Source: Candidatus Omnitrophota bacterium
GTDB lineage: Bacteria > Omnitrophota > Gorgyraeia > 2-02-FULL-51-18
Direction: 5' to 3'
NCBI GenBank assembly: GCA_945877765.1
Contig: CAMDWQ010000002.1
Coordinates: 14,464 to 78,463, forward strand
DNA length: 64,000 nt
The notes under the pieces are model-generated. The model was not told the DNA's origin. It did not search any database and saw nothing but the letters and a program-made list of their open reading frames with translations. This document shows, one piece after another, positions 3,035 through 63,345 of this stretch (position 1 is its first letter; the number at the start of each line of letters is the position of its first letter). The position numbers and the translations under genes were made by a program.

Positions 3035-4246
3035 ATGCCGCGTTTCCGTTATGTAGCCCACACGCTGGCAGGGCTTCGTATTACGGGTGAAGAAGTTGCC
3101 GTTGATGAGAACGCTCTGGTCAGGGCCCTTCAAAGCCGCGATCTGTTCGTCGCGCGATTAGCCATGACCGGTGAAGAGCTTGGGGGCGAGCTTTCCAAAA
3201 GAGCCCATTCAAAAATACGCGATGAGGATCTTCTTCATTTTGCACGAGAATTAGGGACACTGCTGAACTCAGGAATTCCTTTCGATCATGCGCTAGACTT
3301 GGTCACCGACCAAGTGCGAAGCTTTCAACTGGCTAAAGTCTTAATACAGATTCGTGAGGATGTGAACGCAGGCGTCTCTTTTCATCATGCGATCGAAAAG
3401 CATCCCAAAAGTATCCCCTTTTTGTGGGGGCATCTGATTGAAGCGGGGGAGGCTGTAGGTAATATTGCCGGGGTTTTGGGGCATATAGCCAAGCAGCTTG
3501 AGCAGTCAATCGCGCTAAAAAGAAAAATTATATCGGCTCTTTTGTACCCGGCCATCCTGATTGTTGTTACCATCATCGCAATCTCTGTTTTCCTCCTGTT
3601 TGTCATCCCGCAGTTTAGCCGCGTATTTGAGGTTTTGCACACGAAGCTGCCTTTGATGACGCGCGTCATTTTTTCGATTAGTGCATTCGCGAAGACCTTT
3701 TTTATCCCGAGTTTTGTTGTCATTTTTTTGGCCGCTTATATTTTAAAAAAAAGCACCGAGACCCCGACCGGCCGGCGCACGCTGGATCTATGGCTAGTGA
3801 AGGCGCCCATCATTAGCGAGCTCGTTCGAGACGTTGTGATGGCGCGTATTTGTATTAATCTAGCAGCCGTATTATCCAGTGGTGTCGGGCTGATTTATGG
3901 GCTTGATGTAGTTTCGCGGACATCCGGAAATAAGATTTATGAAGAGATGTTGGAAGGCGTGATGGAGGATGTGCGGGACGGCAGCTCCATGTCGCAGGCA
4001 TTAAGTAAGCGGGCTGTTTTTTCTCCGCTGATGATCCAGATGGTGATCGTGGGAGAAGAAAGTGGGCAATTGCCGGAAATGATTCAGAAAGTAGCTAATT
4101 ATTATGAAGAGAAGGTGGAAACTTTGGTGGCGCGAGTCAGCACTTTATTCGAACCGGTGATGTTGATTTTTTTGGGAGTTGTCGTCGGGTCGATTGTAGT
4201 GGCGCTCATGTTGCCGATTGTCACGATTTCATCGTCTCTTCATTGA
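3035..4246 (+). CDS. Inner-membrane platform protein (GspF/PilC family)
   Basis: 403 aa, two repeated GspF domains with hydrophobic TM segments, placed directly after the ATPase. Confidence 0.88.
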   Translation: MPRFRYVAHTLAGLRITGEEVAVDENALVRALQSRDLFVARLAMTGEELGGELSKRAHSKIRDEDLLHFARELGTLLNSGIPFDHALDLVTDQVRSFQLAKVLIQIREDVNAGVSFHHAIEKHPKSIPFLWGHLIEAGEAVGNIAGVLGHIAKQLEQSIALKRKIISALLYPAILIVVTIIAISVFLLFVIPQFSRVFEVLHTKLPLMTRVIFSISAFAKTFFIPSFVVIFLAAYILKKSTETPTGRRTLDLWLVKAPIISELVRDVVMARICINLAAVLSSGVGLIYGLDVVSRTSGNKIYEEMLEGVMEDVRDGSSMSQALSKRAVFSPLMIQMVIVGEESGQLPEMIQKVANYYEEKVETLVARVSTLFEPVMLIFLGVVVGSIVVALMLPIVTISSSLH

Positions 4247-14420: not shown

Positions 14421-15577
14421 TGCGTATTAAAATAATGAGCCGATTATTTGTCGCGCTGTTTTTTTTGCAATTTATTTTTCTTCCGCCGCTTCAGGCGGAT
14501 ACCCAAATCCGTGTGCTGGTCGCTGAAAACCAAAAGATGCTGAAAGTGAATATCCGGGGGGAATACCAGATCAGGGTATTGCCGACGATGCAATTGGTAA
14601 AAAAAGGCAAGGGCCTGTCCGATGCTTGGCTTGTGCCGACAGCCGCTGGCGTGCGGATAGGCCACGAAGAATGGGCTTGCCGCGGCCTGCTGATTCAGCC
14701 GGCAGAAGACCGTGATTTGGTCATAGGCCGCTCAGGTTTTCGGGGTGCTATTTCTATCCTCAAAGATAAAAATAATTTATTTTACGCCATTAATTCTTTG
14801 GATATCGAACGATATCTTTATGGCGTGCTTCATCATGAAGTGGCGGCCTGGTGGCCGATGGAGGCGCTTAAGGCTCAGGCAGTTGCCGCGCGCAGTTATG
14901 CATTGTATCAAGCTGCGGTGAGTCAGCGCGCCGAATATGATGTTAAAAGCAATACCAGCTCTCAGGTTTATGGCGGCAGCACCACAGAGCGCTACCGCAC
15001 CAAACGCGCAGTGAATTTGACGGCCGGCGAGGTGCTTTCTTATCAGGGAAAAGCTTTCCCAGCTTATTTCCATGCCGCGTGCGCGGGTTTGACAGCCGCT
15101 TCCTCGGAGCTTTGGAACATTAGCCTGCCTCCTTTAGCCGGTGGAGTTAAGTGCAGCTATTGCCGCATCTCGCCGCATTACAATTGGGAGTCGCGCGTGC
15201 CGCTGGCTGAAATTGAGGAAAAGTTGAAAAAATATGGCCGTCCTGTTGGGCGAACCCTAAGAATCGAAATCATCTCCCAGACACCCTCTCGCCGAGTCGG
15301 AAGGCTTCGTATTATTGGTACCGCCGGAGAGATTGTTGTCGCCGCCAAGGATTTTCGGGTTTGGATTGGAGGTGACAAGATACGCAGCACTTCGTTTTCC
15401 ATTGAAGTGCGTGAAGATGCGATTTATTTTCACGGCAAGGGGTGGGGACACGGCGTGGGGCTTTGCCAGTGGGGCCTTTTGGGGCAGGCGCTCTTAGGAA
15501 AGACCTATCGCAGCCTGCTGGAGTTTTATTACCCCGGATCGCAAATTGCTCTCAATGCGGCGACAAAAACTTCATGA
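14417..15577 (+). CDS. SpoIID/LytB domain protein (peptidoglycan lytic transglycosylase/amidase enhancer family)
   Basis: Signal peptide, then '[31 protein letters not shown]'. Start is TTG 14417 or ATG 14420. Confidence 0.72.
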
Positions 15578-16650
15578 GTACCGATTTTTTTAATTACGAA
15601 TTACCGGCCGAGCTTATTGCTCAAGAACCCTCGTTGACAAGAGACGCCTCGCGACTACTGGTGATTGATCGTAAGACAGGATCCCTCGTGGACCGCCAGT
15701 TTTCCGACATCGAGGAATATTTGGCGCCAGGGGATATTTTGGCGCTTAATGACACCAAAGTGTTTCCTGCTCGCATCCTAGGAAAAAAGGAAAAAACGGG
15801 CGGTAAAGTGGATTTGCTTCTTTTGTCGCCGTACGAAAAAGCGCTTTCCAAGGCCGATGAATCGATGTCGGCAGGCGCAGCGGAAGAATGGAAATCCAAG
15901 ATTCTATGGAAATGCCTGGTCCAACCCTCCCTGAGGGAAGACCAAGAGATAATATTCGAAAATGAGGCGGCGCGAGCGGTATTTCTAAAGAGGGATTTGG
16001 ACGGCGTGCCAATTGTGGAATTTAAAAATATACGGGATCCTCGAGAGCTGTCACGCCGGATCGGGCACATGCCGTTACCGCCCTACATTCGCCGTGAAGA
16101 TGCGCCCCCGGATACCCAGCGCTACCAGACAGTCTACGCCAAGAATGAGGGCGCTGTTGCCGCGCCTACGGCTGGCCTTCATTTTACAGAGGCACTTCTT
16201 GAAAAAATAAGGCACAAAGGTGTCCAAACAGAGATGCTGACGCTTCATGTTGGTTATGGGACATTTAAACCAGTGGAGAATCTTGAAACTCACCGCATGC
16301 ATACCGAAGTTTTTGAGCTGGGGTTGGATGCGGCGGAAAGAATCAACAAGGCAAAGTTGGAAAAAAGACAAATTTTTGCGGTGGGCACAACCACGGTGCG
16401 CGTGCTTGAGACGTGTGTCCAGAATAATCGATTGATAGCTGGCCGGGGAGAAACAGATATTTTTATTCGTGAGCCGTTTGAGTTTGAAGCCGTGGATAGC
16501 CTTGTGACTAATTTTCATTTACCGAAAACCACACTGCTTCTTTTGGTTGGGGCGTTCATGGGAGAAAAACTCTTAAAAAAGGCTTACGAGCACGCCATTC
16601 AAGAGCGATACCGGTTTTATTCGTATGGCGACGCCATGCTGATTTTATAG
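15574..16650 (+). CDS. queA: S-adenosylmethionine:tRNA ribosyltransferase-isomerase QueA
   Basis: '[19 protein letters not shown]' N-terminus and 'TAGLHFT' motif. ATGA overlap with the spoIID stop. The longer ORF from 15442 lacks support. Confidence 0.9.
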   Translation: MSTDFFNYELPAELIAQEPSLTRDASRLLVIDRKTGSLVDRQFSDIEEYLAPGDILALNDTKVFPARILGKKEKTGGKVDLLLLSPYEKALSKADESMSAGAAEEWKSKILWKCLVQPSLREDQEIIFENEAARAVFLKRDLDGVPIVEFKNIRDPRELSRRIGHMPLPPYIRREDAPPDTQRYQTVYAKNEGAVAAPTAGLHFTEALLEKIRHKGVQTEMLTLHVGYGTFKPVENLETHRMHTEVFELGLDAAERINKAKLEKRQIFAVGTTTVRVLETCVQNNRLIAGRGETDIFIREPFEFEAVDSLVTNFHLPKTTLLLLVGAFMGEKLLKKAYEHAIQERYRFYSYGDAMLIL

Positions 16651-16679
16651 CGGCTGATGAGATTTCAGGGTTATTTCCT

Positions 16680-17555
16680 ATGAAAAAAGAAAAGCTGCCT
16701 CCATTTTCCGCTGAAATTATTTTACGGCCTCGGTCTGCGTGGCTTTCTTTTGATTGGAACGAATTTTTTCAGTACCAGGATCTTTTGTGGCTCCTGGTGC
16801 GACGGGACATCGTCGCCCGCTACAAGCAAACTTTTTTCGGCAGAAGCTGGTTTGTTTTGCAGCCGTTACTGATGACCATCGTTTTTACGGTTGTTTTTGG
16901 AGGCGGGGTGGGTATCTCCACCGACGGCGCGCCGCGTATTCTTTTTTATCTCTGCGGGCTGCTTCCGTGGATTTATTTTTCAGAAAGCCTTCTTTCGGCC
17001 TCCTCAGCGCTTTTATCCAACGCGGACATGTTTCGTAAAATTTATTTTCCTCGATTGATTGTACCTATTGCCACGGTGCTATCGAGGCTTTTTGGTTTCG
17101 CCGTTCATTTCGGCATATTGATCGCTGTTTATGCCTATTACAAATTTTTTACCGTTTCCGGACAGAGCCTTTTTTTTGGCCGTTTCTGGTGGCTGCTTCC
17201 TTTGGCTTTTTGCCAGACGCTGGTCTTAAGCCTGGCAATGGGTTTGTGGGTCTCTGCGCTTTCGGTCAAGCGCCGTGATCTCCAGCATGCGGCGCCATTT
17301 TTGATTCAGATATGGATGTATGTTTCGCCGGTGATTTACCCGGTTTCGCTCGTTTCCGCTCAATGGCATGCGGCGTACCGCTTGAACCCAATGACCTGGG
17401 TTATTGAATTGTACCGGCACGCCTTCCTAGGAACGCCGTCCTTGGTAATTAATGCCGGCTGGATAGTAACCTCGTTGTTGATAAGTTTTTTTCTTTTGAT
17501 AGGCGGTTTTGCGGCGTTTAACGGCATTCAGCGGACGCTGGTCGACGCTCTCTAG
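16680..17555 (+). CDS. ABC-2 type polysaccharide export permease (Wzm/KpsM/TagG family)
   Basis: Six predicted TM segments and 'RDIVARYKQTFFGRSWFVLQPLLM' ABC-2 signature. 291 aa. Confidence 0.75.
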   Translation: MKKEKLPPFSAEIILRPRSAWLSFDWNEFFQYQDLLWLLVRRDIVARYKQTFFGRSWFVLQPLLMTIVFTVVFGGGVGISTDGAPRILFYLCGLLPWIYFSESLLSASSALLSNADMFRKIYFPRLIVPIATVLSRLFGFAVHFGILIAVYAYYKFFTVSGQSLFFGRFWWLLPLAFCQTLVLSLAMGLWVSALSVKRRDLQHAAPFLIQIWMYVSPVIYPVSLVSAQWHAAYRLNPMTWVIELYRHAFLGTPSLVINAGWIVTSLLISFFLLIGGFAAFNGIQRTLVDAL

Positions 17556-17560
17556 CGCGC

Positions 17561-18724
17561 ATGAGCCTGCCAGCCCTTGAGACGCAAGCACTTTCCAAAT
17601 CATATTCCATCCTGTCGGGTGGAAAATCCGAAACTCTGTGGGCGATCAAAGACCTAACACTTTCAATCCAAAATGGCGAGGTTGTGGGAATTATCGGGCG
17701 TAATGGTGCGGGCAAATCAACGCTGTTGAAAATCCTTTCCCGAATCACCGACCCCACCTCAGGCCATGCGATTTTGCGCGGAAGAGTTTCTTCTCTTCTA
17801 GAGGTTGGTACAGGTTTTCATCCGGAGCTTAGCGGCACCGACAATGTCTATGTTAACGGCGCGATTCTGGGAATGAAGCGTGCGGAAATAAGCGCAAAAT
17901 TTAAAGCCATTTCTGAATTTGCCGAAATTGAGAAGTTTATGGACATGCCCATTAAGTTTTATTCCAGCGGCATGCTGCTGCGCCTGGCTTTTGCTGTTGC
18001 CGCCCACTTGGAACCGGAGGTTCTAATTGTGGATGAGATTCTTGCCGTGGGTGATATTGGTTTCCAAAAAAAATGTATTGAAAAAACACACGACCTAACT
18101 CAGAGCGGGCGGACGGTGGTGCTGGTCTCGCACCAGATGAACCAGATTCGAAAACTATGCACCCGTTGTTTTTGGCTGGAGGAGGGCCGTCTAAAACAAG
18201 AAGGGCCGGTAGCGGAGGTGACAAGCGCCTACGAAGAAACGGCGGTATCAGGCGCTATTTTTCGTGATGCCCAGACGCATCCGTCCGCTGTGCGCGGAAA
18301 GGCAAAATTCAGCGGATGGGAAATCAGCGAACCGGCCCCGGACCCCAAGAGAAGTTTTGCGGTGAAAGCCGAACAGCCGTTTTCGGCGGCGTTTACGGCA
18401 GAGATTTCGACCGAATTGTTCAACGTGATTCAGGGCTGCGCTCTTTACGATTCTCAAGGACAACTTCTTTGGGGCGGCGGCGCCCAGCATCTGCGATTGA
18501 CGCCCGGGCGTAAAAAATTTATTTACCGGATGCCGGCGCTTCCTTTGACGCCGGGGAACTATTATTGGCATGTCAGTCTTTACGAGGGAGAAGAAATGCT
18601 CGACAATTGGTACGCAAAGCCCGCGATGAACGTGGAGGCTTTGCCCTTGAATCATCCGATGGATGTCTGGCGTGGGATTTTAAATTTTCCTTATAATTTT
18701 AAGGTGACCGATGAGACCTCGTGA
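17561..18724 (+). CDS. Polysaccharide ABC transporter ATP-binding protein with C-terminal glycan-binding extension (Wzt-like)
   Basis: Walker A 'GRNGAGKSTLLKIL', ABC signature 'YSSGMLLRLAF', Walker B 'VLIVDEILAVGD'. About 150-aa C-terminal extension typical of Wzt. Confidence 0.8.
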   Translation: MSLPALETQALSKSYSILSGGKSETLWAIKDLTLSIQNGEVVGIIGRNGAGKSTLLKILSRITDPTSGHAILRGRVSSLLEVGTGFHPELSGTDNVYVNGAILGMKRAEISAKFKAISEFAEIEKFMDMPIKFYSSGMLLRLAFAVAAHLEPEVLIVDEILAVGDIGFQKKCIEKTHDLTQSGRTVVLVSHQMNQIRKLCTRCFWLEEGRLKQEGPVAEVTSAYEETAVSGAIFRDAQTHPSAVRGKAKFSGWEISEPAPDPKRSFAVKAEQPFSAAFTAEISTELFNVIQGCALYDSQGQLLWGGGAQHLRLTPGRKKFIYRMPALPLTPGNYYWHVSLYEGEEMLDNWYAKPAMNVEALPLNHPMDVWRGILNFPYNFKVTDETS

Positions 18725-18787
18725 ATGGATCGATCTACTTGTTCTTCGGGTAAATAATTTCATTCGTCTTAAAAGCGACGGTTTCCA

Positions 18788-19669
18788 ATGACCGAGAGTC
18801 AATACCCCTGTATTTCTGTTGTGATTCCCTCATTTAACCAGGGTCGTTTTATTGAACAAACCCTTCTGTCTGTTTTGGGGCAACAGTACCCAAACCTCGA
18901 GGTGCTGGTAATGGATGCAGGCAGCACCGACGAAACTCATGAAATTCTGAGGAAGTATCAAGATAGAATTTTTTGGCAAGCTAAGCCCGATGGCGGACAG
19001 GCAGAAGCGATCAATGAAGGGATGCGTATCAGTCGGGGAGATATTCTTTGCTGGCTAAGCTCTGATGATTTTTATTTGCCTGGCACTCTTTTGGACATCG
19101 CTCGTCGTTTCCAGGGGCATCTGAAGGAGTCTTTTTTGGTGTACGGCTCTGCACTGACTCTTTATGAGGAAAATGGCGTCATTGACGGTGGTTGGAAAAA
19201 TGCCGATGCGCTGGATTGCGTTGCGCTGACTTATGAGTGTACGGTGATTCAGCCCAGCGTTTTTTGGACTCGTGAAGCGTGGCGGCGGGTAGGACCGATC
19301 AACACCAAGTACGACCACGTGATTGACTGGGAATGGTATATCCGCGCTTCCAAAATTGCGACTTTTTGTTCTGTTGCAAAATTTTATTCAGTATTCAGGC
19401 TCCATCCGTTGCAGAAATCGAAAAAGGACGGGTTGTGCCGACGCCGGGAAATACTCGAAGTCATCGATATTTACGCGCCAGACAATTGGAAAAAAAATTA
19501 TCATTTAATTTACAGCCGCTTCGAACGCGTTCAGCGGCTACTAGTTTTTTTTAAAAATAGAAAAAGCATCTCTCTTTATTTATTGTTTTGCCTATGTTTT
19601 CCGTGGGTTGCTTTTAAAATTAAATCACGGCGGGATGTAGGGATTATCCTGGGTATGTTGGAACAATAA
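18788..19669 (+). CDS. Glycosyltransferase family 2
   Basis: 'ISVVIPSFNQGRFIEQTLLSVLGQQYPNLEVLVMDAGSTDET' GT-A N-terminus and 'WLSSDDFY' DxD-like motif. Confidence 0.8.
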   Translation: MTESQYPCISVVIPSFNQGRFIEQTLLSVLGQQYPNLEVLVMDAGSTDETHEILRKYQDRIFWQAKPDGGQAEAINEGMRISRGDILCWLSSDDFYLPGTLLDIARRFQGHLKESFLVYGSALTLYEENGVIDGGWKNADALDCVALTYECTVIQPSVFWTREAWRRVGPINTKYDHVIDWEWYIRASKIATFCSVAKFYSVFRLHPLQKSKKDGLCRRREILEVIDIYAPDNWKKNYHLIYSRFERVQRLLVFFKNRKSISLYLLFCLCFPWVAFKIKSRRDVGIILGMLEQ

Positions 19670-19687
19670 CCTTCTTAAAGGAATTCT

Positions 19688-22243
19688 ATGGAAACTCTTC
19701 CGCTTATCTCCATGGTGACGCCCTCGCTGAATCAGGGCGAGTATTTGGAGCAAGCGATAGTCTCGGTCCTTTCCCAAGATTATCCTCGCATCGAATACAT
19801 AATCATCGATGGCGGCAGCACGGATGGCAGCCAAAAAATCATTGAGCGCTATCAAGAGCGTTTGAAATACTGGCGGAGTGCCCCGGATCGCGGACAGTCA
19901 CACGCTATCAATGAGGGATTTGCTCGCTCATTCGGAGAAATTTTGTGCTGGCTCAATTCGGACGACATTTTGATGCCAGGCGCTTTGCGTCGCGTGGCGG
20001 ATTATTTCACTGCCCAGACGAGCCCTGCTTGGCTTATCGGCGGTTGTGAGATTTTTGATGACGAAAAAAATAAAGTTTTCACACGTTTTGCCCACCCCGA
20101 CCTAAACCAAAAAACCTTGCTAGATTGGGATCGGTATTGTTTTGCGCAGCAATCTACTTTTTGGAATCGCTCGATGTGGGAAAAAGCAGGCCCCTTAAAC
20201 GAGTCTCTTCACTACGCGATGGATTTTGCGCTTTGGATTTCCATGATGAAGCAGGCACTGCCAATAAAATCGAATGATGTTTTTTCGCGGTATAGGCTTC
20301 ACTCTAGGGCCAAGGGAATCGCTGGGGCAGATTTATCTCGCAGGGAGCTGCTGAGCGTTATCCACGACAGCAGCACTCTCGTTGATGGGGGATCGGTATC
20401 GCAGCTGGATTCCAAGACCACCCGCTCACCGGATGTCAAAATTTACTGCTTAGCCGCATCCTGTTCAAGGCATAGTTGGGGCACGGGAATAATTTACAAC
20501 CACGCCGCTATTTTACGAAAAAATGGCTATCCTGCTTTTGTTCTGCATGAAGAGGAGCCATTTTCTTTGGAATGGCTTCACTGTGATGTTCCGGTAGTCT
20601 ATCTCAACCGCATGCAAACCTCGATCAGAAAACATGATTTATTGATTGTCCCTGAAGTGATGGCATCAGACCCTAAAATTCTTTCCATTCAATGCCGGAA
20701 AGTGGTGCATGTGCAGAATATTTTTTTTATGACGACGAATGCTCCTGATAACATTGATTTCTCGAAACTCGGATACGAGAGAGTGCTAATTGCGTCGGAG
20801 CGCATGCAAGACGCCATCGTCCGTTTTCACGGGATCCGAGGGGATATCATGCCGCCTTTTGTGGCACCCTATTTTTATCCTGCGACAACCCCCAAAAAAT
20901 CTCACGCTCGGCCCCGGCGGATCGTGATTTATCCCAAAAATGAATGCCTGGACTATCAAATCCTTTCACGGGTTTTACGCGAATATGTAGAGAATCATTG
21001 CACGGGATGGGAGATTGTCGAGCTGCGCGGAAAATCTCACACCGAGTGGGCCGACCTCTTAAGGGGATCTGCTTTTTTTGTGAGCGTGAACTGTTGTGAG
21101 GGTTTTAATGCCAGTGTTCCTGAGGCAATGGCGGCCGGCTGCATCCCGTTTTGTTATGACGCGTATGGCGGCCTGGATTATCTCAAAGATAACCACAATG
21201 CCTGCGCCTTTCCGAATAATCACATTTATCCGCTGCTGACGCGCTTAACCGATTGGATGGACCGCTATGACAAAATTCAACCACAGTTATTATCGATGCG
21301 GAAAAAAGCTTACAAAACAATGCTCGGCTATCGGATAGAAAAAACTGAGGCGGCGCTGTTGCTTTTGTTTAAAGATTTGATCCCAAAAAAAAGCGTGATT
21401 CCCGATAAAAATGAAAATGCGGAGCGCTACCAGGCGTTTATAAAAATTGCTAAAGACCGTTCCCGGGAGTACGCGACTGCAAAGCCATTTGCGCACACTG
21501 TGCTCGATAATTTTTTTCCAGAGCCGGTTCTCGAGCAAGTAATTAATGAATTTCCTTTGACTGAAGCGGCTCTGTGGCAGCGTTACCGCAACAGCCACGA
21601 GCAGAAGCTTGAGTGGTCTGCCAGCGCTCAGATGGGAGAGGTGACGGATCGGCTGCTAAAGGAGCTTTGCAGCGCCAACTTTCTATTGTTTCTAGAAAAA
21701 CTGACCGGCATTCGTGGGTTGATCCCCGATCTTAATCTTTCTGGGGCGGGGCTGCACCAGGTGGAGGCGGGTGGTTTTTTGGATATACATGTGGATTTTA
21801 ACCGACACAAAACCACCGGGTACGAACGGCGGCTGAATTTACTTTTGTATTTGAATAAAGATTGGAAAGAAGAATATGGCGGTCACCTAGAACTTTGGGA
21901 CAGCGCGCGGCAGAATTGCGTCAAAAAAATTACTCCCGTGTTTAACCGCTGTGTCATTTTTAGTACGTCGCGATTTTCTTGGCATGGTCACCCGCAGCCG
22001 CTCGCGTGCCCCCCAGACAGAACCCGCAAGTCACTCGCGCTTTATTATTACACGCGCACCCGAAATGATGGGGAATCACAGGGAGGCCACAACACCTTGT
22101 TTGGTCCGATGCCGGCACCTGTTAAGAAGAATGCTTTTTTGTGGGAGCTTCTTTGGATGATATTCTCGCCCAGACTCATGAATCAAGCCCAGCGTCTTAA
22201 GAGAAAGTGGTTGGGACCCAAAAGCCCTAAGGACGCATCGTAA
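19688..22243 (+). CDS. Multidomain glycosyltransferase: N-terminal GT2 + central GT1/GT4-like region + C-terminal 2OG-Fe(II) oxygenase (prolyl-hydroxylase-like) domain
   Basis: GT2 'ISMVTPSLNQGEYLEQAIVSVLSQDYPRIEYIIIDGGSTDGS'. Central 'EAMAAGCIPF' GT-B-like. C-terminal 'GGFLDIHVDFNRH...YGGHLELWD...RCVIFSTSRFSWHGHPQP...RKSLALYYY' carries HxD...H and a basic 2OG-binding residue. Confidence 0.7.
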   Translation: METLPLISMVTPSLNQGEYLEQAIVSVLSQDYPRIEYIIIDGGSTDGSQKIIERYQERLKYWRSAPDRGQSHAINEGFARSFGEILCWLNSDDILMPGALRRVADYFTAQTSPAWLIGGCEIFDDEKNKVFTRFAHPDLNQKTLLDWDRYCFAQQSTFWNRSMWEKAGPLNESLHYAMDFALWISMMKQALPIKSNDVFSRYRLHSRAKGIAGADLSRRELLSVIHDSSTLVDGGSVSQLDSKTTRSPDVKIYCLAASCSRHSWGTGIIYNHAAILRKNGYPAFVLHEEEPFSLEWLHCDVPVVYLNRMQTSIRKHDLLIVPEVMASDPKILSIQCRKVVHVQNIFFMTTNAPDNIDFSKLGYERVLIASERMQDAIVRFHGIRGDIMPPFVAPYFYPATTPKKSHARPRRIVIYPKNECLDYQILSRVLREYVENHCTGWEIVELRGKSHTEWADLLRGSAFFVSVNCCEGFNASVPEAMAAGCIPFCYDAYGGLDYLKDNHNACAFPNNHIYPLLTRLTDWMDRYDKIQPQLLSMRKKAYKTMLGYRIEKTEAALLLLFKDLIPKKSVIPDKNENAERYQAFIKIAKDRSREYATAKPFAHTVLDNFFPEPVLEQVINEFPLTEAALWQRYRNSHEQKLEWSASAQMGEVTDRLLKELCSANFLLFLEKLTGIRGLIPDLNLSGAGLHQVEAGGFLDIHVDFNRHKTTGYERRLNLLLYLNKDWKEEYGGHLELWDSARQNCVKKITPVFNRCVIFSTSRFSWHGHPQPLACPPDRTRKSLALYYYTRTRNDGESQGGHNTLFGPMPAPVKKNAFLWELLWMIFSPRLMNQAQRLKRKWLGPKSPKDAS

Positions 22244-24528
22244 TGGTTGATGTCATTATTCCTATTTTCAACGCCTACGAGGCGCTTGCGCGCTGTTTGG
22301 AGAGCATAAGGGCGACCAGCGCCGGAGAGGTCTCCTACCGCCTTATCCTGATTGATGACGCCAGTGAGGACCCAAGAATTTTTCCCTTTCTTGAAAAAAT
22401 GAAAGCGCCTGACGATCTGCTGTTGAAAAATGAAAACAATTTAGGTTTTGTCCAGACCGCAAACCGAGGAATGGCTGTTTCGCAGGAGCATGATGTTGTA
22501 TTGCTTAATTCGGACACCCTCGTAACAGAGGGTTGGTTAGCAGCACTCCAAAAAGCGGCTTACCAGCACCCCTCGATCGGCGGCGCTAACCCGCTGACGA
22601 ATTGCGCTTCTATTTTCTCTGTCCCCGAGCTGTCCGCATTTGCCCAGCCGACTTCATTACAAAAAATAAGCCGTTGGATAAAAAATAACCAGAAGGGATT
22701 AGCGCACGACATTCCATCAGCCGTCGGGTTTTGTTTTTATATTAAACGATGTGTTATTCGCGAGGTTGGGCTGTTTGATGAAATTTTTGGCAGGGGTTAT
22801 GGTGAAGAGAATGATTTTTGCATGAAAGCCAAGAAAAGGGGATATCGATTTGTTCTTACCAACGAAGCCTTCGTTTATCACGAAGGTCACGTTTCGATGA
22901 AGGCCGCGGGTGTTGTCCTAGAGGGACAAGAAGCTTTGCCAGCGCATCAGAACATTATTGATGAGCGTTATCCTGGATACTCAGACATGGTTCAACGTTA
23001 TGCGCACAGCGGCGTGATGCAGCAAATGCGCTCGGATGTTTTACAGGGCTTGGCTTCACAGCTGGGTTTGGGGCGAAAAAGAATTCTTTATTTTCTCCAT
23101 CACGCGGTGGACGGCTCTAGTGTCGGCGGAGCCGAATTTCATGTACGTGGTTTGGTGGAGCAGCTGAAACAAGAATATGTCTGTTATGTTGCGCGCATCG
23201 AGAACAATGTATTTTACATTGATGAGTATGTGGACGAGCTGCATCTTTCCTATGCTTACCCGCTAAGCCAACGACTGCCCTACCTGGCTTTGAGGCATCC
23301 GGCCGCGTTTCAGGCGGCTTGTGAAGTTTTGACGGCGTTCGCGATTGATCTTGTGCACATGCATTTGACGATGAACAATAATCTTGAAATTGTGCATGCC
23401 GCAAAGACTCTTGGCATCCCAGTTTTTTTATCTTTGCATGATTACTATTGTGCCAGTCCTGATTTTAATCTCTCCTACAAATTTCACGACCTGACTTGGA
23501 ATGAAAACCGAAATCCACCGCGTGGTTTTTTTTATGGTCTCTATGGCGCAAGAAATTTTAATGAAATTGCATGGCGCCAAGAGATGGCTGCTGCCTTTAG
23601 GCGGATAGATGAAGTTTTGGTCCCTAGCCATGACACGCTAAATCGTGTAAAAAAATATTTTAAGCGAACCACGAGAATTCGCGTGATTGAGCACGGTGTT
23701 CTTGACTATGAAACCAATTTGCTTTCCTTGCAAGCAGCAAGCCGGGATTCAAAAAAGTTTTCTATTTGTTTTTTGGGGTACACGCACGCCCCTCATAAGG
23801 GAGCCCAAGTGCTGCCCAAGATCATCCCAAAACTTCTGGCGCAAGGCATTGAAGTGCATCTTTTAGGTACTGACGCTGTTCATTGGAAGCGATATCCCTG
23901 GGCGCGGGAAATCCATATCCATGGCTCTTATCAACGCTCTCAAGTGATTCAAAAAATACGGACCATCAACCCATCCCTTGTCGCAATCACTTCCATCTGC
24001 CCCGAAACTTTTTCATACACCCTTAATGAGGCCTGGGCTGCTGGCGTGCCTGTGGTGGTGCCGCCTATCGGGGCTCCGGCAGAGCGAGTACAAAGGGCGG
24101 GTGGCGGGGTTGTACTGAGTGATTTCAAGCCAGAAACTTTTATCAGAGAAGTAATGGGAATGGTAAACAACAAGGCAGAATACAGCCAGCTTCAAAAGGC
24201 TGCGGAGAACATGCGCTTGAAGACAGCTGATGAAAATACTCAAGACTATCGGTATTTGTATGAGTCGTATTTTGCCAGGCACACGCAGGCGAGGCGCAGC
24301 AATTATTCCCCCGTAAACCAATTTAAACTTCAAGGGCAAAAAAAATATTGGGGTCTAAGCGCTCCTTTTGAGGGGCCCAGGTTTTTGTTTGCCATGAGCT
24401 TGTTGCATGATTTTAAGTGGATGCTTGTGCCGTTTGTTCGCCGCTCAACAGCTTGGTTCCTGGCTCTTTTTTCAAAGTCTCAAAATACGGAAATTGAGAT
24501 TTTGGACGGCGACCTGTCCGAAGAGTAA
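22243..24528 (+). CDS. Bifunctional glycosyltransferase (N-terminal GT2 + C-terminal GT1/GT4-like)
   Basis: 'VIIPIFNAYEALARCLESI...LIDDAS' GT-A N-terminus. C-terminal 'LNEAWAAGVPVVVPPIGAPAERV' GT-B EX7E-like region. 761 aa. Confidence 0.7.
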   Translation: MVDVIIPIFNAYEALARCLESIRATSAGEVSYRLILIDDASEDPRIFPFLEKMKAPDDLLLKNENNLGFVQTANRGMAVSQEHDVVLLNSDTLVTEGWLAALQKAAYQHPSIGGANPLTNCASIFSVPELSAFAQPTSLQKISRWIKNNQKGLAHDIPSAVGFCFYIKRCVIREVGLFDEIFGRGYGEENDFCMKAKKRGYRFVLTNEAFVYHEGHVSMKAAGVVLEGQEALPAHQNIIDERYPGYSDMVQRYAHSGVMQQMRSDVLQGLASQLGLGRKRILYFLHHAVDGSSVGGAEFHVRGLVEQLKQEYVCYVARIENNVFYIDEYVDELHLSYAYPLSQRLPYLALRHPAAFQAACEVLTAFAIDLVHMHLTMNNNLEIVHAAKTLGIPVFLSLHDYYCASPDFNLSYKFHDLTWNENRNPPRGFFYGLYGARNFNEIAWRQEMAAAFRRIDEVLVPSHDTLNRVKKYFKRTTRIRVIEHGVLDYETNLLSLQAASRDSKKFSICFLGYTHAPHKGAQVLPKIIPKLLAQGIEVHLLGTDAVHWKRYPWAREIHIHGSYQRSQVIQKIRTINPSLVAITSICPETFSYTLNEAWAAGVPVVVPPIGAPAERVQRAGGGVVLSDFKPETFIREVMGMVNNKAEYSQLQKAAENMRLKTADENTQDYRYLYESYFARHTQARRSNYSPVNQFKLQGQKKYWGLSAPFEGPRFLFAMSLLHDFKWMLVPFVRRSTAWFLALFSKSQNTEIEILDGDLSEE

Positions 24529-24593
24529 ATTTTATAAAGCATTGACACTATTTTTTAAATAACACAAAATGTGAGTTCACAAAGTGAGGGAAT

Positions 24594-25484
24594 ATGGCAG
24601 AATTAAAAACAAATTGGAAAAATCTTGTCAAGATGGCAGTGCAGGGGAAACCTGCGAATCCTTTGCGTTTCGGAGAATTTGAAATGGATTGGAAGGGGCA
24701 AGGACACTCGCTGCCGAGTGTTGGGGGGATTACTTACAACGTAAAGGTGGGCGACAGCGCATTTCATTGGCGGGGTGATCATATCGAGCCGGGTGTGTCG
24801 ATGGTGTTGGATGAAGAAAAAAGATCCAGCAAGCAAAATATGGCACTGCAGTTTTTGGCGTGTGTTGGCAATGAGGCGGTGGTTGTCTCGGGTGCCGCCA
24901 AAGGCGCTAGGGGCGTAGTGGTTGGGCATCATGGCGGCGTGGAGCACATGATCGTCGATTTTGACGATAAAACTCTCAACAAACTGACGTATGATGACAA
25001 AATTTTGATTAAGGCTTTCGGGCAAGGCCTCAAGCTTCTGGACGTGCCGGAGGTTTTTGTATACAACCTAGATCCCGGAGTTTTAAAGCCTTGGGGAGTT
25101 AGGATTTCTGGGGGCAAGCTGGAAGTGCCTGTGACAATGACGGTGCCGTCCTCGCTCATGGGCTCAGGGCTTGGGCACGGCGACCCTGCGACCGGAGACT
25201 ACGACATCACCACACAGGATGCCAAAGCGGTAAAACGCTATGGGTTGGATCAGCTGCGTTTTGGAGATTTTGTGGCCATCATGGATGCGGATAATACATT
25301 TGGGCGGCATTATTTTGAGGGAGCTGTTACGATTGGGGTTGTTGCGCACTCGGATAGCTTTCTTTCAGGTCATGGGCCGGGAATTTCAACGCTATTTTCA
25401 TCGAGAACGCCTGCGATTCGTCCTAAGATTTCATATAATGCTAATCTTGCCAATGTGTTAAAAATCGGAAGATATAGGAAATAA
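24594..25484 (+). CDS. Conserved hypothetical protein
   Basis: 296-aa ORF with RBS 'GAGGGAATATG'. No confidently recognised family. Confidence 0.5.
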   Translation: MAELKTNWKNLVKMAVQGKPANPLRFGEFEMDWKGQGHSLPSVGGITYNVKVGDSAFHWRGDHIEPGVSMVLDEEKRSSKQNMALQFLACVGNEAVVVSGAAKGARGVVVGHHGGVEHMIVDFDDKTLNKLTYDDKILIKAFGQGLKLLDVPEVFVYNLDPGVLKPWGVRISGGKLEVPVTMTVPSSLMGSGLGHGDPATGDYDITTQDAKAVKRYGLDQLRFGDFVAIMDADNTFGRHYFEGAVTIGVVAHSDSFLSGHGPGISTLFSSRTPAIRPKISYNANLANVLKIGRYRK

Positions 25485-25493
25485 GTGCTTGGC

Positions 25494-25650
25494 GAGGGGC
25501 TAATTATCTTCTTTTAGCCAACGTTAAATTTGCCCCTCCGAGGCAAATTTAACTCGATAGATAAGAGCTCGCTCGTCCCCATCTACTACGATGGGGACAC
25601 CATGGCCGCTCGCCTTATCTACGCGTCTAAAAGAAGATAATTAGCCCCTC
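25494..25650. repeat. 157-nt structured element bounded by a perfect 24-bp inverted repeat with nested hairpins (intergenic, hypothetical protein -> tgt)
   Basis: Arms 25494-25517 'gaggggctaattatcttcttttag' and 25627-25650, exact reverse complements. Inner 12-bp hairpin (gttaaatttgcc/ggcaaatttaac) and 9-bp hairpin (gtccccatc/gatggggac), flanked by gataag/cttatc. Confidence 0.55.
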
Positions 25651-25671
25651 ACCGAACACTGGAACCAAAAA

Positions 25672-26817
25672 ATGCAGAAAATTTTTGAAATTCAACATAA
25701 GGATCCTCAAAGCAAAGCCCGGACGGGTGTGTTGAAAACTGCCCATGGGGAAATAAAGACGCCCGTCTTTATGCCGGTGGGGACGCAGGCGACGGTTAAG
25801 ACGATTTCCAATGATGAGCTTCTGGGGACTGGCGCGCAGGTTATTTTGTCCAATAGCTATCATTTGTATTTGCGGCCAGGCGAAGCGGTGATGAAAGAGG
25901 CGGGCGGGTTGCACCGCTTTATGAATTGGCAGAAACCAATTCTTACGGATTCGGGAGGTTTTCAGATTTTTAGCCTGGCTAGATTAAACAAAATTACCGC
26001 CGAGGGCGTGCATTTCCAATCTCACATCGATGGCTCTAAACATTTTTTATCTCCGGAAGATGTCATTCGCGTTGAGCATACGTTGGGCAGTGATATTATT
26101 ATGCCTTTGGATGAGTGTGTGAAGTATCCCAGCGAACATGATTATGTAAAAAAATCTCTTAAAATTACCCATGACTGGGCACGGCGGAGTAAGGTGGCGT
26201 GGGAGGCGGCTGGTTGTAGAAATGATTATGGTTTGAGCAGTATTCTTTTTGGGATTGTACAGGGTGGCGTCTATCATGATCTGCGGGAAGAATCAGCCAA
26301 GGCGTTGGTGGATATTGATTTTCCGGGATATTCGATCGGGGGTTTGAGTGTGGGCGAGCCTAGCCAGGCGATGTATGAGACGTTGGCGGCTACATTGCCG
26401 CATTTACCTGAAGATAAGCCGCATTATTTAATGGGAGTGGGATTTCCTCTGGATCTTTTTGAAGCGGTGTCGCAGGGCGTAGATATGTTTGATTGTGTGG
26501 TTCCCACGCGAAACGGACGCAATGCCACGGTATTTACTCGATATGGAAAGCTTTTGCTTCGCGGCGCTTCCTATATCCGTGATTTTGGACCTATCGAGGA
26601 AGGCTGTGCTTGCTACACCTGCAAAAATCATACCCGCGCATACTTGCGCCACCTTTTCAATGCGGACGAATATTTGGCGGGTCGATTAGCTTCTTTACAT
26701 AATCTAACATTTTTTATACAATTGCTGGCATCAATGAGGCGGGCGATTGAGGAAGATAGGTTCGTAGCGTTTCGCCGCGAGTTTGAAAGTGATTACAACC
26801 GCATAAAGGAGTCCTAA
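25672..26817 (+). CDS. tgt: Queuine tRNA-ribosyltransferase Tgt
   Basis: 'FMPVGTQATVK...LGFPLDLFEAV...CxCxxC' zinc motif 'CACYTCKNHTRAYLRHL'. Confidence 0.93.
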   Translation: MQKIFEIQHKDPQSKARTGVLKTAHGEIKTPVFMPVGTQATVKTISNDELLGTGAQVILSNSYHLYLRPGEAVMKEAGGLHRFMNWQKPILTDSGGFQIFSLARLNKITAEGVHFQSHIDGSKHFLSPEDVIRVEHTLGSDIIMPLDECVKYPSEHDYVKKSLKITHDWARRSKVAWEAAGCRNDYGLSSILFGIVQGGVYHDLREESAKALVDIDFPGYSIGGLSVGEPSQAMYETLAATLPHLPEDKPHYLMGVGFPLDLFEAVSQGVDMFDCVVPTRNGRNATVFTRYGKLLLRGASYIRDFGPIEEGCACYTCKNHTRAYLRHLFNADEYLAGRLASLHNLTFFIQLLASMRRAIEEDRFVAFRREFESDYNRIKES

Positions 26818-46142: not shown

Positions 46143-46289
46143 GGCGGGAGGTTGTTTATTTTTGCAGCGAATGCATGCGACGCGCAGGCTGCTATGTGTA
46201 AATTTTTTTACAGCCTGAAGCTCGACGAAAGTCCCAAGCCCCGTCGACGCGGAGCGGCAATTTGCGGAAAAAATAAACAACCTCCCGCC
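46143..46289. repeat. 147-nt structured element bounded by a 21-bp perfect inverted repeat (intergenic, after acyl-CoA ligase)
   Basis: Arms 46143-46163 'ggcgggaggttgtttattttt' and 46269-46289 'aaaaataaacaacctcccgcc'. Internal caggctg/cagcctg hairpin and cgtcgacg palindrome. Confidence 0.5.
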
Positions 46290-49757: not shown

Positions 49758-49794
49758 AGCCGAGCTTTATGCTCGGCTTTCTTTTTTATTTTTT
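49758..49794 (+). terminator. Rho-independent terminator after rplM-rpsI
   Basis: Stem 'agccgagc'-tttat-'gctcggct' followed by 'ttctttttttattttt'. Confidence 0.7.
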
Positions 49795-49874
49795 GACATG
49801 CACGACAAAGCTAATTATAATGAACACTTCGCGGATAAAATAGCACAGATAATACAGAGCAGTGTCAGAGTAGT

Positions 49875-49944
49875 GTCATCCCCGAATTTTCTTATCGGGG
49901 ATCATGTATTAGTTTGATTCCCGATTAAAACTTTCGGGAATGAC
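49875..49944 (+). repeat. Bipartite palindromic repeat unit, copy A (upstream of argC)
   Basis: 'gtcatccccga-N10-tcggggatcatg...tgattcccga-N10-tcgggaatgac'. Ends 13 nt before ATG 49958, with GGGAG in between. Confidence 0.8.
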
Positions 49945-49957
49945 GATTGGGAGCGGA

Positions 49958-52207: not shown

Positions 52208-52245
52208 TTATCAGGGCGCTGTTTCGTTTGGACACGAAATAGGTT

Positions 52246-52275
52246 TGATCCCCGATTAAAGATTTCGGGGATGAC
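52246..52275 (-). repeat. Half-copy (single hairpin) of the palindromic repeat, copy B, inverted orientation (upstream of argB)
   Basis: 'tgatccccgattaaagatttcggggatgac'. The flanking 'gatgacactgtgctgacatt' mirrors the 5' flank of copy A. Confidence 0.65.
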
Positions 52276-52303
52276 ACTGTGCTGACATTGGAGAGGGTAA
52301 ACC

Positions 52304-55404: not shown

Positions 55405-55415
55405 TCACACAAGGT

Positions 55416-55486
55416 GTCATCCCCGAGATCATTAATCGGGGATCATGTCTTAAGTTTGATTCCCGATAAAAAAATTCGGGAATGAC
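55416..55486 (+). repeat. Palindromic repeat unit, copy C1 (tandem pair upstream of argG)
   Basis: 71-nt unit matching the family consensus. Separated from C2 by 12 nt. Confidence 0.8.
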
Positions 55487-55498
55487 GTAGAATGGTAT

Positions 55499-55568
55499 GT
55501 CATCCCCGAAATCTTTTATCGGGGATCATGTGTAGGTTTGATTCCCGATTAAAACTTTCGGGAATGAC
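55499..55568 (+). repeat. Palindromic repeat unit, copy C2
   Basis: 70-nt unit. Ends 13 nt before ATG 55582, with GGGAGAG in between. Confidence 0.8.
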
Positions 55569-55581
55569 ATTGGGAGAGAAA

Positions 55582-56751: not shown

Positions 56752-56759
56752 CGCGAAGC

Positions 56760-56830
56760 GTCATCCCCGAAATATTTAATCGGGGATCATGTGTTGGGTT
56801 TGATTCCCGATAAAAACTTTCGGGAATGAC
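56760..56830 (+). repeat. Palindromic repeat unit, copy D (upstream of argH)
   Basis: 71-nt unit. The additional 7-bp palindrome atgacgc/gcgtcat spans the argG stop codon. Confidence 0.8.
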
Positions 56831-56844
56831 AGGGAGTATTAAAA

Positions 56845-58221: not shown

Positions 58222-58223
58222 CT

Positions 58224-58286
58224 GTCATTCCCAAATTTTTTATCGGGAATCAAACTTGATCCCCGATTAAAGATTTCGGGGATGAC
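58224..58286 (-). repeat. Palindromic repeat unit, copy E, inverted orientation (upstream of lysA)
   Basis: 'gtcattccc-aaattttttatcgggaatcaaac ttgatccccgattaaagatttcggggatgac' is the reverse complement of the consensus. Confidence 0.78.
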
Positions 58287-58299
58287 ACTCGAGGAGTTT

Positions 58300-62056: not shown

Positions 62057-63274
62057 ATGACACATCCTTTTTTTCTTGAAGAATCTAATCGCCTGAAAGC
62101 ACTGCCTCCGTATCTTTTTCTCGAGATTGACCGCGCCAAACGGCGGGCGATTGAAAAAGGGGTCAAAGTGATTGATTTCGGCATTGGCGATCCTGATCAG
62201 CCAACACCCAAATATATTCTGGATGTCATGCAGCGCGTGGTCAAAGACCCCAAAAATCATCATTATCCTCTGGACCGCGGAAGCCACGCCTTTCGGTTGG
62301 CGGCATCCGTATGGTTAAAAAAACGATTTGGAAGCTATTTTGACCCGGACACTGAAATTTTGCCGCTCATTGGCTCGAAGGAAGGGATTGCTCATCTGCC
62401 ATTAGCCTTCATCAATCCCGGTGATGTCGTGCTGGTTCCTGATCCTTGTTATCCGCCGTACAAAAGCGGCACATTGTTTGCCGGCGGGCACGCGCATCTT
62501 ATGCCGCTGAAGGAAGAAAACGCATTTCTGCCAGATTTTGAAGCGGTCCCCGCAGAAGTTTTAAAAAAATCAAAAATAATTTTTGTAAACTACCCCAATA
62601 ATCCCACGGGTGCTGTAGCGACGCGCCCCTTTTACGAGAAGCTGGTCAAGTGGGCACACACACACAAAATCCTCATTGCCTCGGATCTGGCTTATTCGGA
62701 GGTATTTTTTACAAAAGAAAAACCGCTGAGCATTTTTGAAGTTCCGGGGGCCAGAGAGGTAGCGATTGAATTTCACTCTCTCTCAAAGACTTGTAATATG
62801 ACTGGCTGGCGGATTGGTTTTGCCGTTGGAAGAGCCGAAGCGATTTCTTCGCTCTTGCGGGTGAAATCCAACCTTGATTCGGGTGTTTTTACCGCGATAC
62901 AAATGACCGCGATTGAGGCGCTCAAAAATAGTTTTGGGTTTTCCAAGAAAACCAACATCATGTATCGCCGCCGCCGCGATCTTTTGGTGGCTGGCTTAAA
63001 AGAGCTGGGTTTCCCCATAAAACCCAATCAGGCCTCCTTTTATTTGTTTACTCGCCTTCCGGCGGGGTCAACGGATTCTACTACCTATTGTAAAAATCTT
63101 TTGGAGAAAACGGGCATTGTCGCAACGCCTGGAGTGGGCTTTGGAGCGCCGGGCGAGGGCTATATTCGTTTTACGTTGACGGTGCCAGAAGCTGAAATTC
63201 GCGAAGCCATCATACGGATGAAAAAATATTACGCAGTGTCATCCCCGAAATCTTTAATCGGGGATCATGTCTAG
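62057..63274 (+). CDS. dapL: LL-diaminopimelate aminotransferase-like class I aminotransferase (DapL-type); last 12 codons + stop lie inside repeat copy F
   Basis: 'SKEGIAHLPLAFINPGD', 'FVNYPNNPTG', PLP-Lys 'SLSKTCNMTGWRIG'. Contiguous with dapB/dapA/dapF/lysA. C-terminal 'VSSPKSLIGDHV*' is encoded by 'gtgtcatccccgaaatctttaatcggggatcatgtctag'. Confidence 0.78.
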   Translation: MTHPFFLEESNRLKALPPYLFLEIDRAKRRAIEKGVKVIDFGIGDPDQPTPKYILDVMQRVVKDPKNHHYPLDRGSHAFRLAASVWLKKRFGSYFDPDTEILPLIGSKEGIAHLPLAFINPGDVVLVPDPCYPPYKSGTLFAGGHAHLMPLKEENAFLPDFEAVPAEVLKKSKIIFVNYPNNPTGAVATRPFYEKLVKWAHTHKILIASDLAYSEVFFTKEKPLSIFEVPGAREVAIEFHSLSKTCNMTGWRIGFAVGRAEAISSLLRVKSNLDSGVFTAIQMTAIEALKNSFGFSKKTNIMYRRRRDLLVAGLKELGFPIKPNQASFYLFTRLPAGSTDSTTYCKNLLEKTGIVATPGVGFGAPGEGYIRFTLTVPEAEIREAIIRMKKYYAVSSPKSLIGDHV

Positions 63275-63307
63275 GTTTGATTCCCGATAAGTACTTTCGG
63301 GAATGAC
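63238..63307 (+). repeat. Palindromic repeat unit, copy F (overlaps dapL 3' end, upstream of folK)
   Basis: 70-nt unit matching the consensus. Confidence 0.8.
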
Positions 63308-63345
63308 AAAGGGAGTCACAAAGGGAATGCAAATGGAAGGGTGCT

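Follow-up and report, generated by a model that had tools for sequence, protein, structure and literature searches.

The question raised by this locus is what a large and highly symmetrical palindrome, here called E1, represents between the gene of a DUF4438 protein and tgt, the gene of queuine tRNA-ribosyltransferase. The window, by which we mean the whole stretch of 64,000 nt that was analysed, belongs to a MAG of Candidatus Omnitrophota, as placed by its Tgt homologues. Nearly all genes of the window lie on the + strand, including DUF4438, tgt and, 3' of the latter, yajC and secDF. The DUF4438-tgt spacer measures 187 nt; the first base of E1 is the final A of the DUF4438 stop codon, and 11 nt separate the end of the element from the tgt ATG. 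The initial annotation had described an element of 157 nt and had considered it compatible with a MITE-like insertion, a structured sRNA or a 5'-UTR element of tgt.

The analysis of the structure bears out most of that description. The 24-bp exact terminal inverted repeats and the perfect 12-bp hairpin are present as had been claimed, and the 9-bp hairpin (gtccccatc...gatggggac) is likewise perfect. The gataag/cttatc helix also exists, its length being 8 bp and not 6, and the extent of 157 nt, right as far as the 24-bp arms are concerned, has to be enlarged to 177 nt because the pairing runs on to 34 nt at 91% (25484-25517 / 25627-25660, including the 24-bp perfect part; Table 1). For the 24-mer arm 0 matches are expected by chance, as judged from 100 shuffles of the window. 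RNA folding of the + strand gives -91.1 kcal/mol with z = -12.4, and that of the - strand gives -102.9 kcal/mol with z = -12.3, none of the 200 shuffles being as good for either strand; the DNA fold gives z = -11.9, and the 109-nt interior folded by itself gives z = -6.2. The predicted structure is a closed three-way junction, in agreement with the closed multi-branch structure proposed at first. The structure of E1 is far beyond chance. All the pairs in the four perfect helices are Watson-Crick (53/53) without a single G-U pair, and the three imperfect outer positions favour neither strand; such helices look like those of a DNA-level palindrome, or of a very young element, rather than those of an evolved RNA. 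A 12-mer, AATTWGCCCCTC, occurs twice (25527-25538 and 25639-25650) and its complement once (25494-25505). The first of these copies is the 5' arm of hairpin A running into the loop and repeats the end of the right outer arm, and the 5' arm at 25494-25505 may pair with it alternatively at 11 of 12 positions. The reuse of this motif could be the trace of a stepwise inverted duplication, or could correspond to repeated protein-binding sites.

Table 1. Location of E1, its parts, the flanking genes and the other palindromic elements of the window.
Feature	Position	Strand	Description
DUF4438 protein gene	24594..25484	+	296 aa; upstream of E1; Pfam PF14505 and PF20999; stop codon abuts E1
tgt (queuine tRNA-ribosyltransferase)	25672..26817	+	downstream of E1; Pfam PF01702, E = 8e-159
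E1, whole palindromic element	25484..25660	.	177 nt; three-way junction closed by a long outer stem; 34-nt inverted repeat I1 at 91%
E1, terminal inverted repeats			sequence type of the ends, GAGGGGCTAATTATC
E1, left outer imperfect extension	25484..25493	.	7/10 paired with 25651-25660
E1, left perfect arm	25494..25517	+	exact 24-mer, GAGGGGCTAATTATCTTCTTTTAG
E1, hairpin A	25523..25553	.	perfect 12-bp stem GTTAAATTTGCC / GGCAAATTTAAC, 7-nt loop; arms 25523-25534 / 25542-25553
E1, hairpin B domain	25558..25621	.	8-bp helix around perfect 9-bp hairpin
E1, 8-bp helix	25558-25565 / 25614-25621	.	TAGATAAG / CTTATCTA; inverted repeat and fold
E1, 9-bp hairpin	25575-25598	.	GTCCCCATC / GATGGGGAC; perfect stem, 25575-25583 / 25590-25598
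E1, right perfect arm	25627..25650	-	exact reverse complement of the left arm
E1, right outer imperfect extension	25651..25660	.	partner of 25484-25493
E2, second long-stem palindrome	46143-46289		30-nt arms at 90%, 21 bp perfect; three-way junction
R repeat			GTCATCCCCGA..TCGGGGATCATG then TTGATTCCCGA..TCGGGAATGAC
R copy	49871-49946		
R copy	52236-52278		half copy
R copy	55413-55490		
R copy	55497-55572		
R copy	56756-56833		
R copy	58222-58289	-	
R copy	63234-63311		

Five conspecific assemblies span E1 entirely (the window, L001, L003, L004 and L094), and its sequence is the same in all of them, base for base. Of the four besides the window, three are independent ENA assemblies and one is a second NCBI MAG, so E1 is not an assembly artefact. 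Another four conspecific contigs, L002, L005, L006 and L007, end inside it (4/7 same-strain contigs), with break points between 25589 and 25612. These interruptions bear on a possible inverton, in which the 24-bp inverted repeats would act as recombinase sites and the 109-bp interior would flip to alter the expression of tgt. Perfect inverted repeats around a short segment just upstream of a gene are what such a device looks like, and heterogeneity of the population could be the cause of the breaks. Nonetheless, the interior has one and the same orientation in 9/9 contigs, that is, the five spanning E1 and the four ending inside, and it holds no promoter consensus on either strand; moreover, the break points vary, which is what a loss of coverage in a strong palindrome should produce. 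No recombinase gene is found nearby, the only integrase-family gene seen being located ~8 kb past the right end of the window, ~46 kb from E1 and in a housekeeping context. We rejected the inverton, which we regard as hardly credible. E1 was also considered as an attC-like site. The core motifs of attC sites follow the order RYYYAAC...GTTRRRY; the GTTAAAT...ATTTAAC hairpin of E1 has them in the opposite order, integron context is absent, and the candidate was dropped.

Ends of this kind are not confined to E1. Logan and MEGAHIT assemblies, which are independent of each other, repeatedly end inside palindromes: in E1, in the L009 spacer described below (L010 and L011) and in the R copy at 63234-63311, where L098 starts. 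MAG assemblies are fragmented by these palindromic elements, probably via coverage loss or graph branching, and this is their practical cost.

The orthologous junctions of related genomes are informative about the origin of E1. The DUF4438-tgt spacer is 15 nt long in L012/L014 (Tgt identity 88%), 25 nt in the P0007 contig (86%) and 4 nt in L013 (82%), and in L015, L017, L019 and L024 (66-78%) the two genes range from overlapping to under about 20 nt apart. The junction is empty in these seven relatives, whose Tgt is 66-88% identical and whose genes overlap or lie at most about 25 nt apart; the tight arrangement is therefore ancestral and the 187-nt spacer of the window derived. This comparison of junctions shows E1 to be lineage-specific extra DNA found only in this species.

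The same comparison decides largely against a function for which the element might have been conserved, namely that of a cis-regulatory leader or riboswitch of tgt or of an independently transcribed structured sRNA, on either strand. The very stable multi-branch fold on both strands, the position of E1 directly 5' of tgt and 11 nt from its ATG, and the alternative pairing of the 5' arm with 25527-25538 would all suit such a role. Against it, E1 is missing from 7/7 informative orthologous junctions, all of them too short to hold it, so that the proposal of a 5'-UTR element of tgt is not supported; absence at orthologous loci, the outcome named beforehand as refuting, was found, and it speaks against a conserved tgt leader. 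Rfam 15, a check that the initial annotation had suggested, returned 0 matches at the gathering score over the whole window, and, with E <= 10, just four weak ones, to eukaryotic RNA families and located in or next to E1, which we regard as noise. A sigma-70 promoter consensus is absent from both strands of E1, and 0 terminator-like sites were found on either strand of 25300-25800. The sequence 3' of the E1 stem, ACCGAACACTGGAACC, has no U-tract either, so the earlier statement that E1 is not a simple terminator was correct. The lack of promoter and terminator consensus concerns an organism using canonical ones, and together with the empty Rfam search and the absence at orthologous loci it tells against the proposed sRNA. 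Furthermore, the helices contain no G-U pairs and are symmetric palindromes in the style of DNA. We consider a leader, riboswitch or sRNA very unlikely; by sequence E1 looks like an ordinary small palindromic insertion, and an annotation placing it upstream of tgt should not label it as riboswitch, leader or sRNA.

With respect to the signals used by this organism, the rpsI-argC spacer (49760-49830 in the window, 9690-9760 in L095) holds a conserved intrinsic terminator followed by a TTGACA-N17-TATAAT promoter. These sequences indicate that this Omnitrophota lineage uses standard sigma-70 promoters and U-tract terminators.

In other relatives the junction is long and is occupied by sequences unrelated to E1. 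In L009 the spacer measures 372 nt and contains an unrelated 207-nt palindrome with 43-nt outer and 21-nt inner arms (-118 kcal/mol), for which Rfam gave only a sub-threshold match to a plant miRNA precursor that reflects the long hairpin. The junction of L008 is occupied by an element some 90 nt long, GTCATCTCGAG...CTCGAAATGAC, whose termini resemble the R repeat of the window, and that of P0006 has a spacer of about 150 nt through which the gene caller reads as a 36-aa N-terminal extension. L009, L008 and P0006 are all members of the clade with a Tgt identity of at least 86%. Two or three other close relatives thus hold different palindromic sequences at the DUF4438-tgt junction. L009 also shows, at 3861-3975, directly 5' of tgt and beside the 207-nt palindrome, a G+C-rich structured stretch, GGCGGGTGGCGCGGAGG...GGACCCGCC, without any match in Rfam.

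The window itself contains further palindromes at intercistronic junctions. E2 folds with -72 to -74 kcal/mol (z = -7.5) and sits right after the acetyl-CoA synthetase gene and before an 86-aa ORF. The orthologous spacers, 22 nt long in L095 and 46 nt long in L096, lack it, and Rfam in E-value mode gave no meaningful match for it. The arms of E1 and E2 have TGGCG.G.GG.T..TTAT.TT in common (15/22), with the GGCG motif 6 nt past the stop codon in both. The grouping of E1 and E2 as one family was not adopted, as three unrelated sites of the window score equally and longer probes fail to pick E2.

The R repeat is a 72-nt double hairpin with seven copies between 49.8 and 63.3 kb of the window. All of them are intercistronic, each directly 5' of a GGGAG-type Shine-Dalgarno sequence followed by the next start codon; in 5/7 the upstream stop codon is no more than about 30 nt away, and one copy overlaps it. 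The arg operon of L095, the nearest relative, is syntenic but has no R copy, its spacers being 18-26 nt, and no long inverted repeat was found in the 26 kb of that relative that were examined. R-like copies are found elsewhere, in the DUF4438-tgt spacer of L008 and in the JGI contig L100 (1011-1082). R is a REP/BIME- or MITE-like family of this genome. The possibility that E1 is a relative of R was discarded, an nhmmer profile of R matching neither E1 nor E2. The copy at 63234-63311 overlaps the last 40 nt of an aminotransferase ORF (62057-63274) and seems to supply the final codons and the stop of that gene. The sequences of E2 and R, in summary, show that this same genome gained other palindromic elements at other intercistronic junctions.

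Taking these observations together, we propose, as the probable reading, that E1 belongs to the MITE, foldback or Correia-ERIC type of small self-complementary elements without coding function, that it entered the formerly tight DUF4438-tgt junction in the lineage of this species, and that it is now fixed there. In this proposal E1 would have come ready-made as a non-autonomous element, either transposed in trans or brought in by some related process that depends on hairpins. E1 is clearly non-coding, its longest open stretch being 40 codons, with no gene called there in any assembly and no match of its six-frame peptides among 5.8 billion protein clusters. With respect to copy number, no second E1 was found in about 74 kb of its own genome, so that the single copy in the window initially reported stands. 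When E1 and E2 were compared by blastn-short with the fetched loci, which amount to 1.4 Mb (~1/4 Omnitrophota relatives), only self matches resulted; blastn of E1 against plasmids and phages gave no match, and the six-frame peptides revealed no copy that a gene caller had translated. An exact 20- or 22-mer of the E1 arm had 0 matches in GTDB representative genomes, JGI metagenomes and IMG/VR, which says little on within-genome copies since the source species is absent from the GTDB/JGI sets.

Terminal inverted repeats, a small non-coding body and empty sites in relatives are features of MITEs that E1 displays; a flanking target-site duplication is one that it does not. The initial annotation had proposed a search for such duplications, and none abuts the boundary of the 34-nt repeat (..GGAAATA / GGAACC..) or that of the 24-nt repeat (..GCTTGGC / ACCGAAC..). 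Neither a transposase nor a RAYT domain was found in the genes checked, and these take in most of the window and 10 kb past its right end. The interior of E1 is atypical, consisting of its own perfect hairpins instead of continuing the terminal palindrome. The MITE-like insertion first suggested is the best fit, supported by the empty orthologous junctions and weakened by the lack of a second copy and of a flanking direct repeat; strict membership of E1 in the MITEs is unproven.

Several known systems can be compared with E1. The ERIC/IRU and REP/BIME elements of enterobacteria are palindromes, perfect or imperfect, located between co-transcribed genes and thought to modulate mRNA stability. 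ERIC and REP form multi-copy families with a conserved consensus, the REP units being of ~35 nt and tied to RAYT transposases. E1 is similar to all of these in being a palindrome between genes that are probably co-transcribed and differs in that a single copy was found; the REP/BIME-like family of the window is the 72-nt R repeat and not E1. Copy numbers of ERIC are given in PMC10969869. The same work describes QMITE2 of Coxiella burnetii (PMC10969869), in which terminal inverted repeats of 23-29 bp surround a core of 113-145 bp and the fold energy is -113 kcal/mol; E1, with arms of 24-34 bp, a core of 109 nt and -91 kcal/mol, matches described prokaryotic MITEs of this sort in its dimensions and fold energy. 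With prokaryotic MITEs in general E1 shares the non-coding nature, a size of <300 bp, the intergenic position, the presence or absence between related genomes and a very stable stem-loop in the transcript, which is predicted for E1; it departs from them in the lack of flanking direct repeats and in that neither a second copy nor a cognate IS was found, and its core is made of perfect local hairpins. Because the flanking direct repeats of MITEs decay with time (PMC10969869), the missing target-site duplication weakens MITE membership without excluding it.

The Correia elements of Neisseria (CREE/NEMIS) resemble E1 in size class, symmetric inverted-repeat ends, position 5' of a gene and insertion polymorphism (PMC2649163; PMC2229807). 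CREE are 104-157 bp long, and their inverted repeats are RNase III substrates when transcribed (PMC2649163). However, they number about 100-250 copies, are flanked by a target duplication of TA or, rarely, CA, and have an IHF site and ends that form promoters (PMC2649163), whereas E1 shows none of those that were tested and belongs to an unrelated phylum; a TA or CA pair of the CREE type flanks neither repeat boundary of E1. The likeness of E1 to CREE is plausibly one of function, E1 working like them, and not one of membership. E1 belongs to no named sequence family and is a kind of element already known.

A different origin, without any mobility, would be the construction of E1 in place as an orphan, by template switching during replication or by inverted duplication. 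Such a local origin would agree with the single copy in everything searched, with the lack of a target-site duplication and with the perfect Watson-Crick pairing of all the main helices. The presence of AATTWGCCCCTC at 25527-25538 and 25639-25650, complementary to 25494-25505, is the residue to be expected from successive inverted copying, and every related genome carries a long palindrome peculiar to it. That perfect hairpins can be created and maintained by template switching has been documented (PMC8794818), and E1 resembles those hairpins in its perfect stems without G-U pairs, in the 12-nt motif reused in both orientations and in being lineage-specific. On the other hand, the documented events are mostly of tens of nt and reuse neighbouring sequence (PMC8794818), while E1 amounts to ~170 nt with no visible local source; the window offers no origin for this new sequence and the ancestral spacer was of 0-25 nt, so template switching alone is insufficient. 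The dispersed palindromic family R of the same genome demonstrates that ready-made elements do insert, and a single junction that was filled independently three or four times is more suggestive of insertion, either targeted or tolerated. We consider this local origin rather unlikely, though the most serious competitor of the insertion of a ready-made element.

Regarding the consequences of the insertion that we favour, E1 would be co-transcribed in the DUF4438-tgt operon mRNA, since it lies between co-directional genes without a terminator. In the mRNA it would fold to about -90 kcal/mol, and the 34-bp outer duplex of the resulting hairpin may serve as an RNase III substrate and as a barrier to 3' exonucleases. 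The element would part the two cistrons physically and end any translational coupling between them, and the mRNA segments upstream and downstream of it would probably differ in stability. Effects of a transcribed stem on the RNA have been discussed for MITEs generally (PMC10969869, PMC2229807), and by analogy E1 probably acts as an RNase III or mRNA-stability hairpin. Any effect on tgt would be a by-product of the insertion and not an ancestral regulatory design.

The importance of E1 is modest overall. Its interest lies in documenting that small palindromic elements of several kinds have recently colonised the intercistronic junctions of an uncultured Omnitrophota lineage, the closest sequenced relative being free of them at the same sites. 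Should these elements act on operon mRNA, whether by differential stability or by processing through RNase III, nature would have set up a clean experiment in the DUF4438-tgt pair, tight in the relatives and uncoupled here.

Other Omnitrophota have their own, unrelated, near-perfect palindromes of about 100-280 nt, namely in L017 (13808-14211), L019 (2653-2776 and 15643-15924) and L096 (2365-2464), and it seems that long orphan palindromes recur in the phylum. A 74-nt spacing between the arms is common to L009, L017 and L019; as their interiors are unrelated, it was treated as a coincidence. One may speculate that E1, E2 and the palindromes of L009, L017 and L019 form a class of orphan intercistronic RNA modules, each made de novo by template switching, with arms kept perfect in the same way, and retained for splitting coupled operons into separately processed cistrons by RNase III or a similar activity. 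We regard such a class as improbable; were it true, it would represent a recurrent rewiring of operon expression, defined by structure and free of sequence, in a phylum whose genomes are extremely compact and single-strand-biased.

Finally, the gene order around the junction deserves a comment. In the related Omnitrophota L009, L012 and L013 it is queA, a small hypothetical gene, DUF4438 and tgt, and in that order of the relatives DUF4438 and tgt abut or overlap. This arrangement hints at a role of the DUF4438 protein in queuosine modification. In the window (15442-26817) a block of ~8 kb, from 16680 to 24528, separates queA from DUF4438; the genes checked in this block encode two glycosyltransferases, both large and multi-domain and one of them with a 2OG-Fe(II) oxygenase domain, as well as an ABC-2 transporter.
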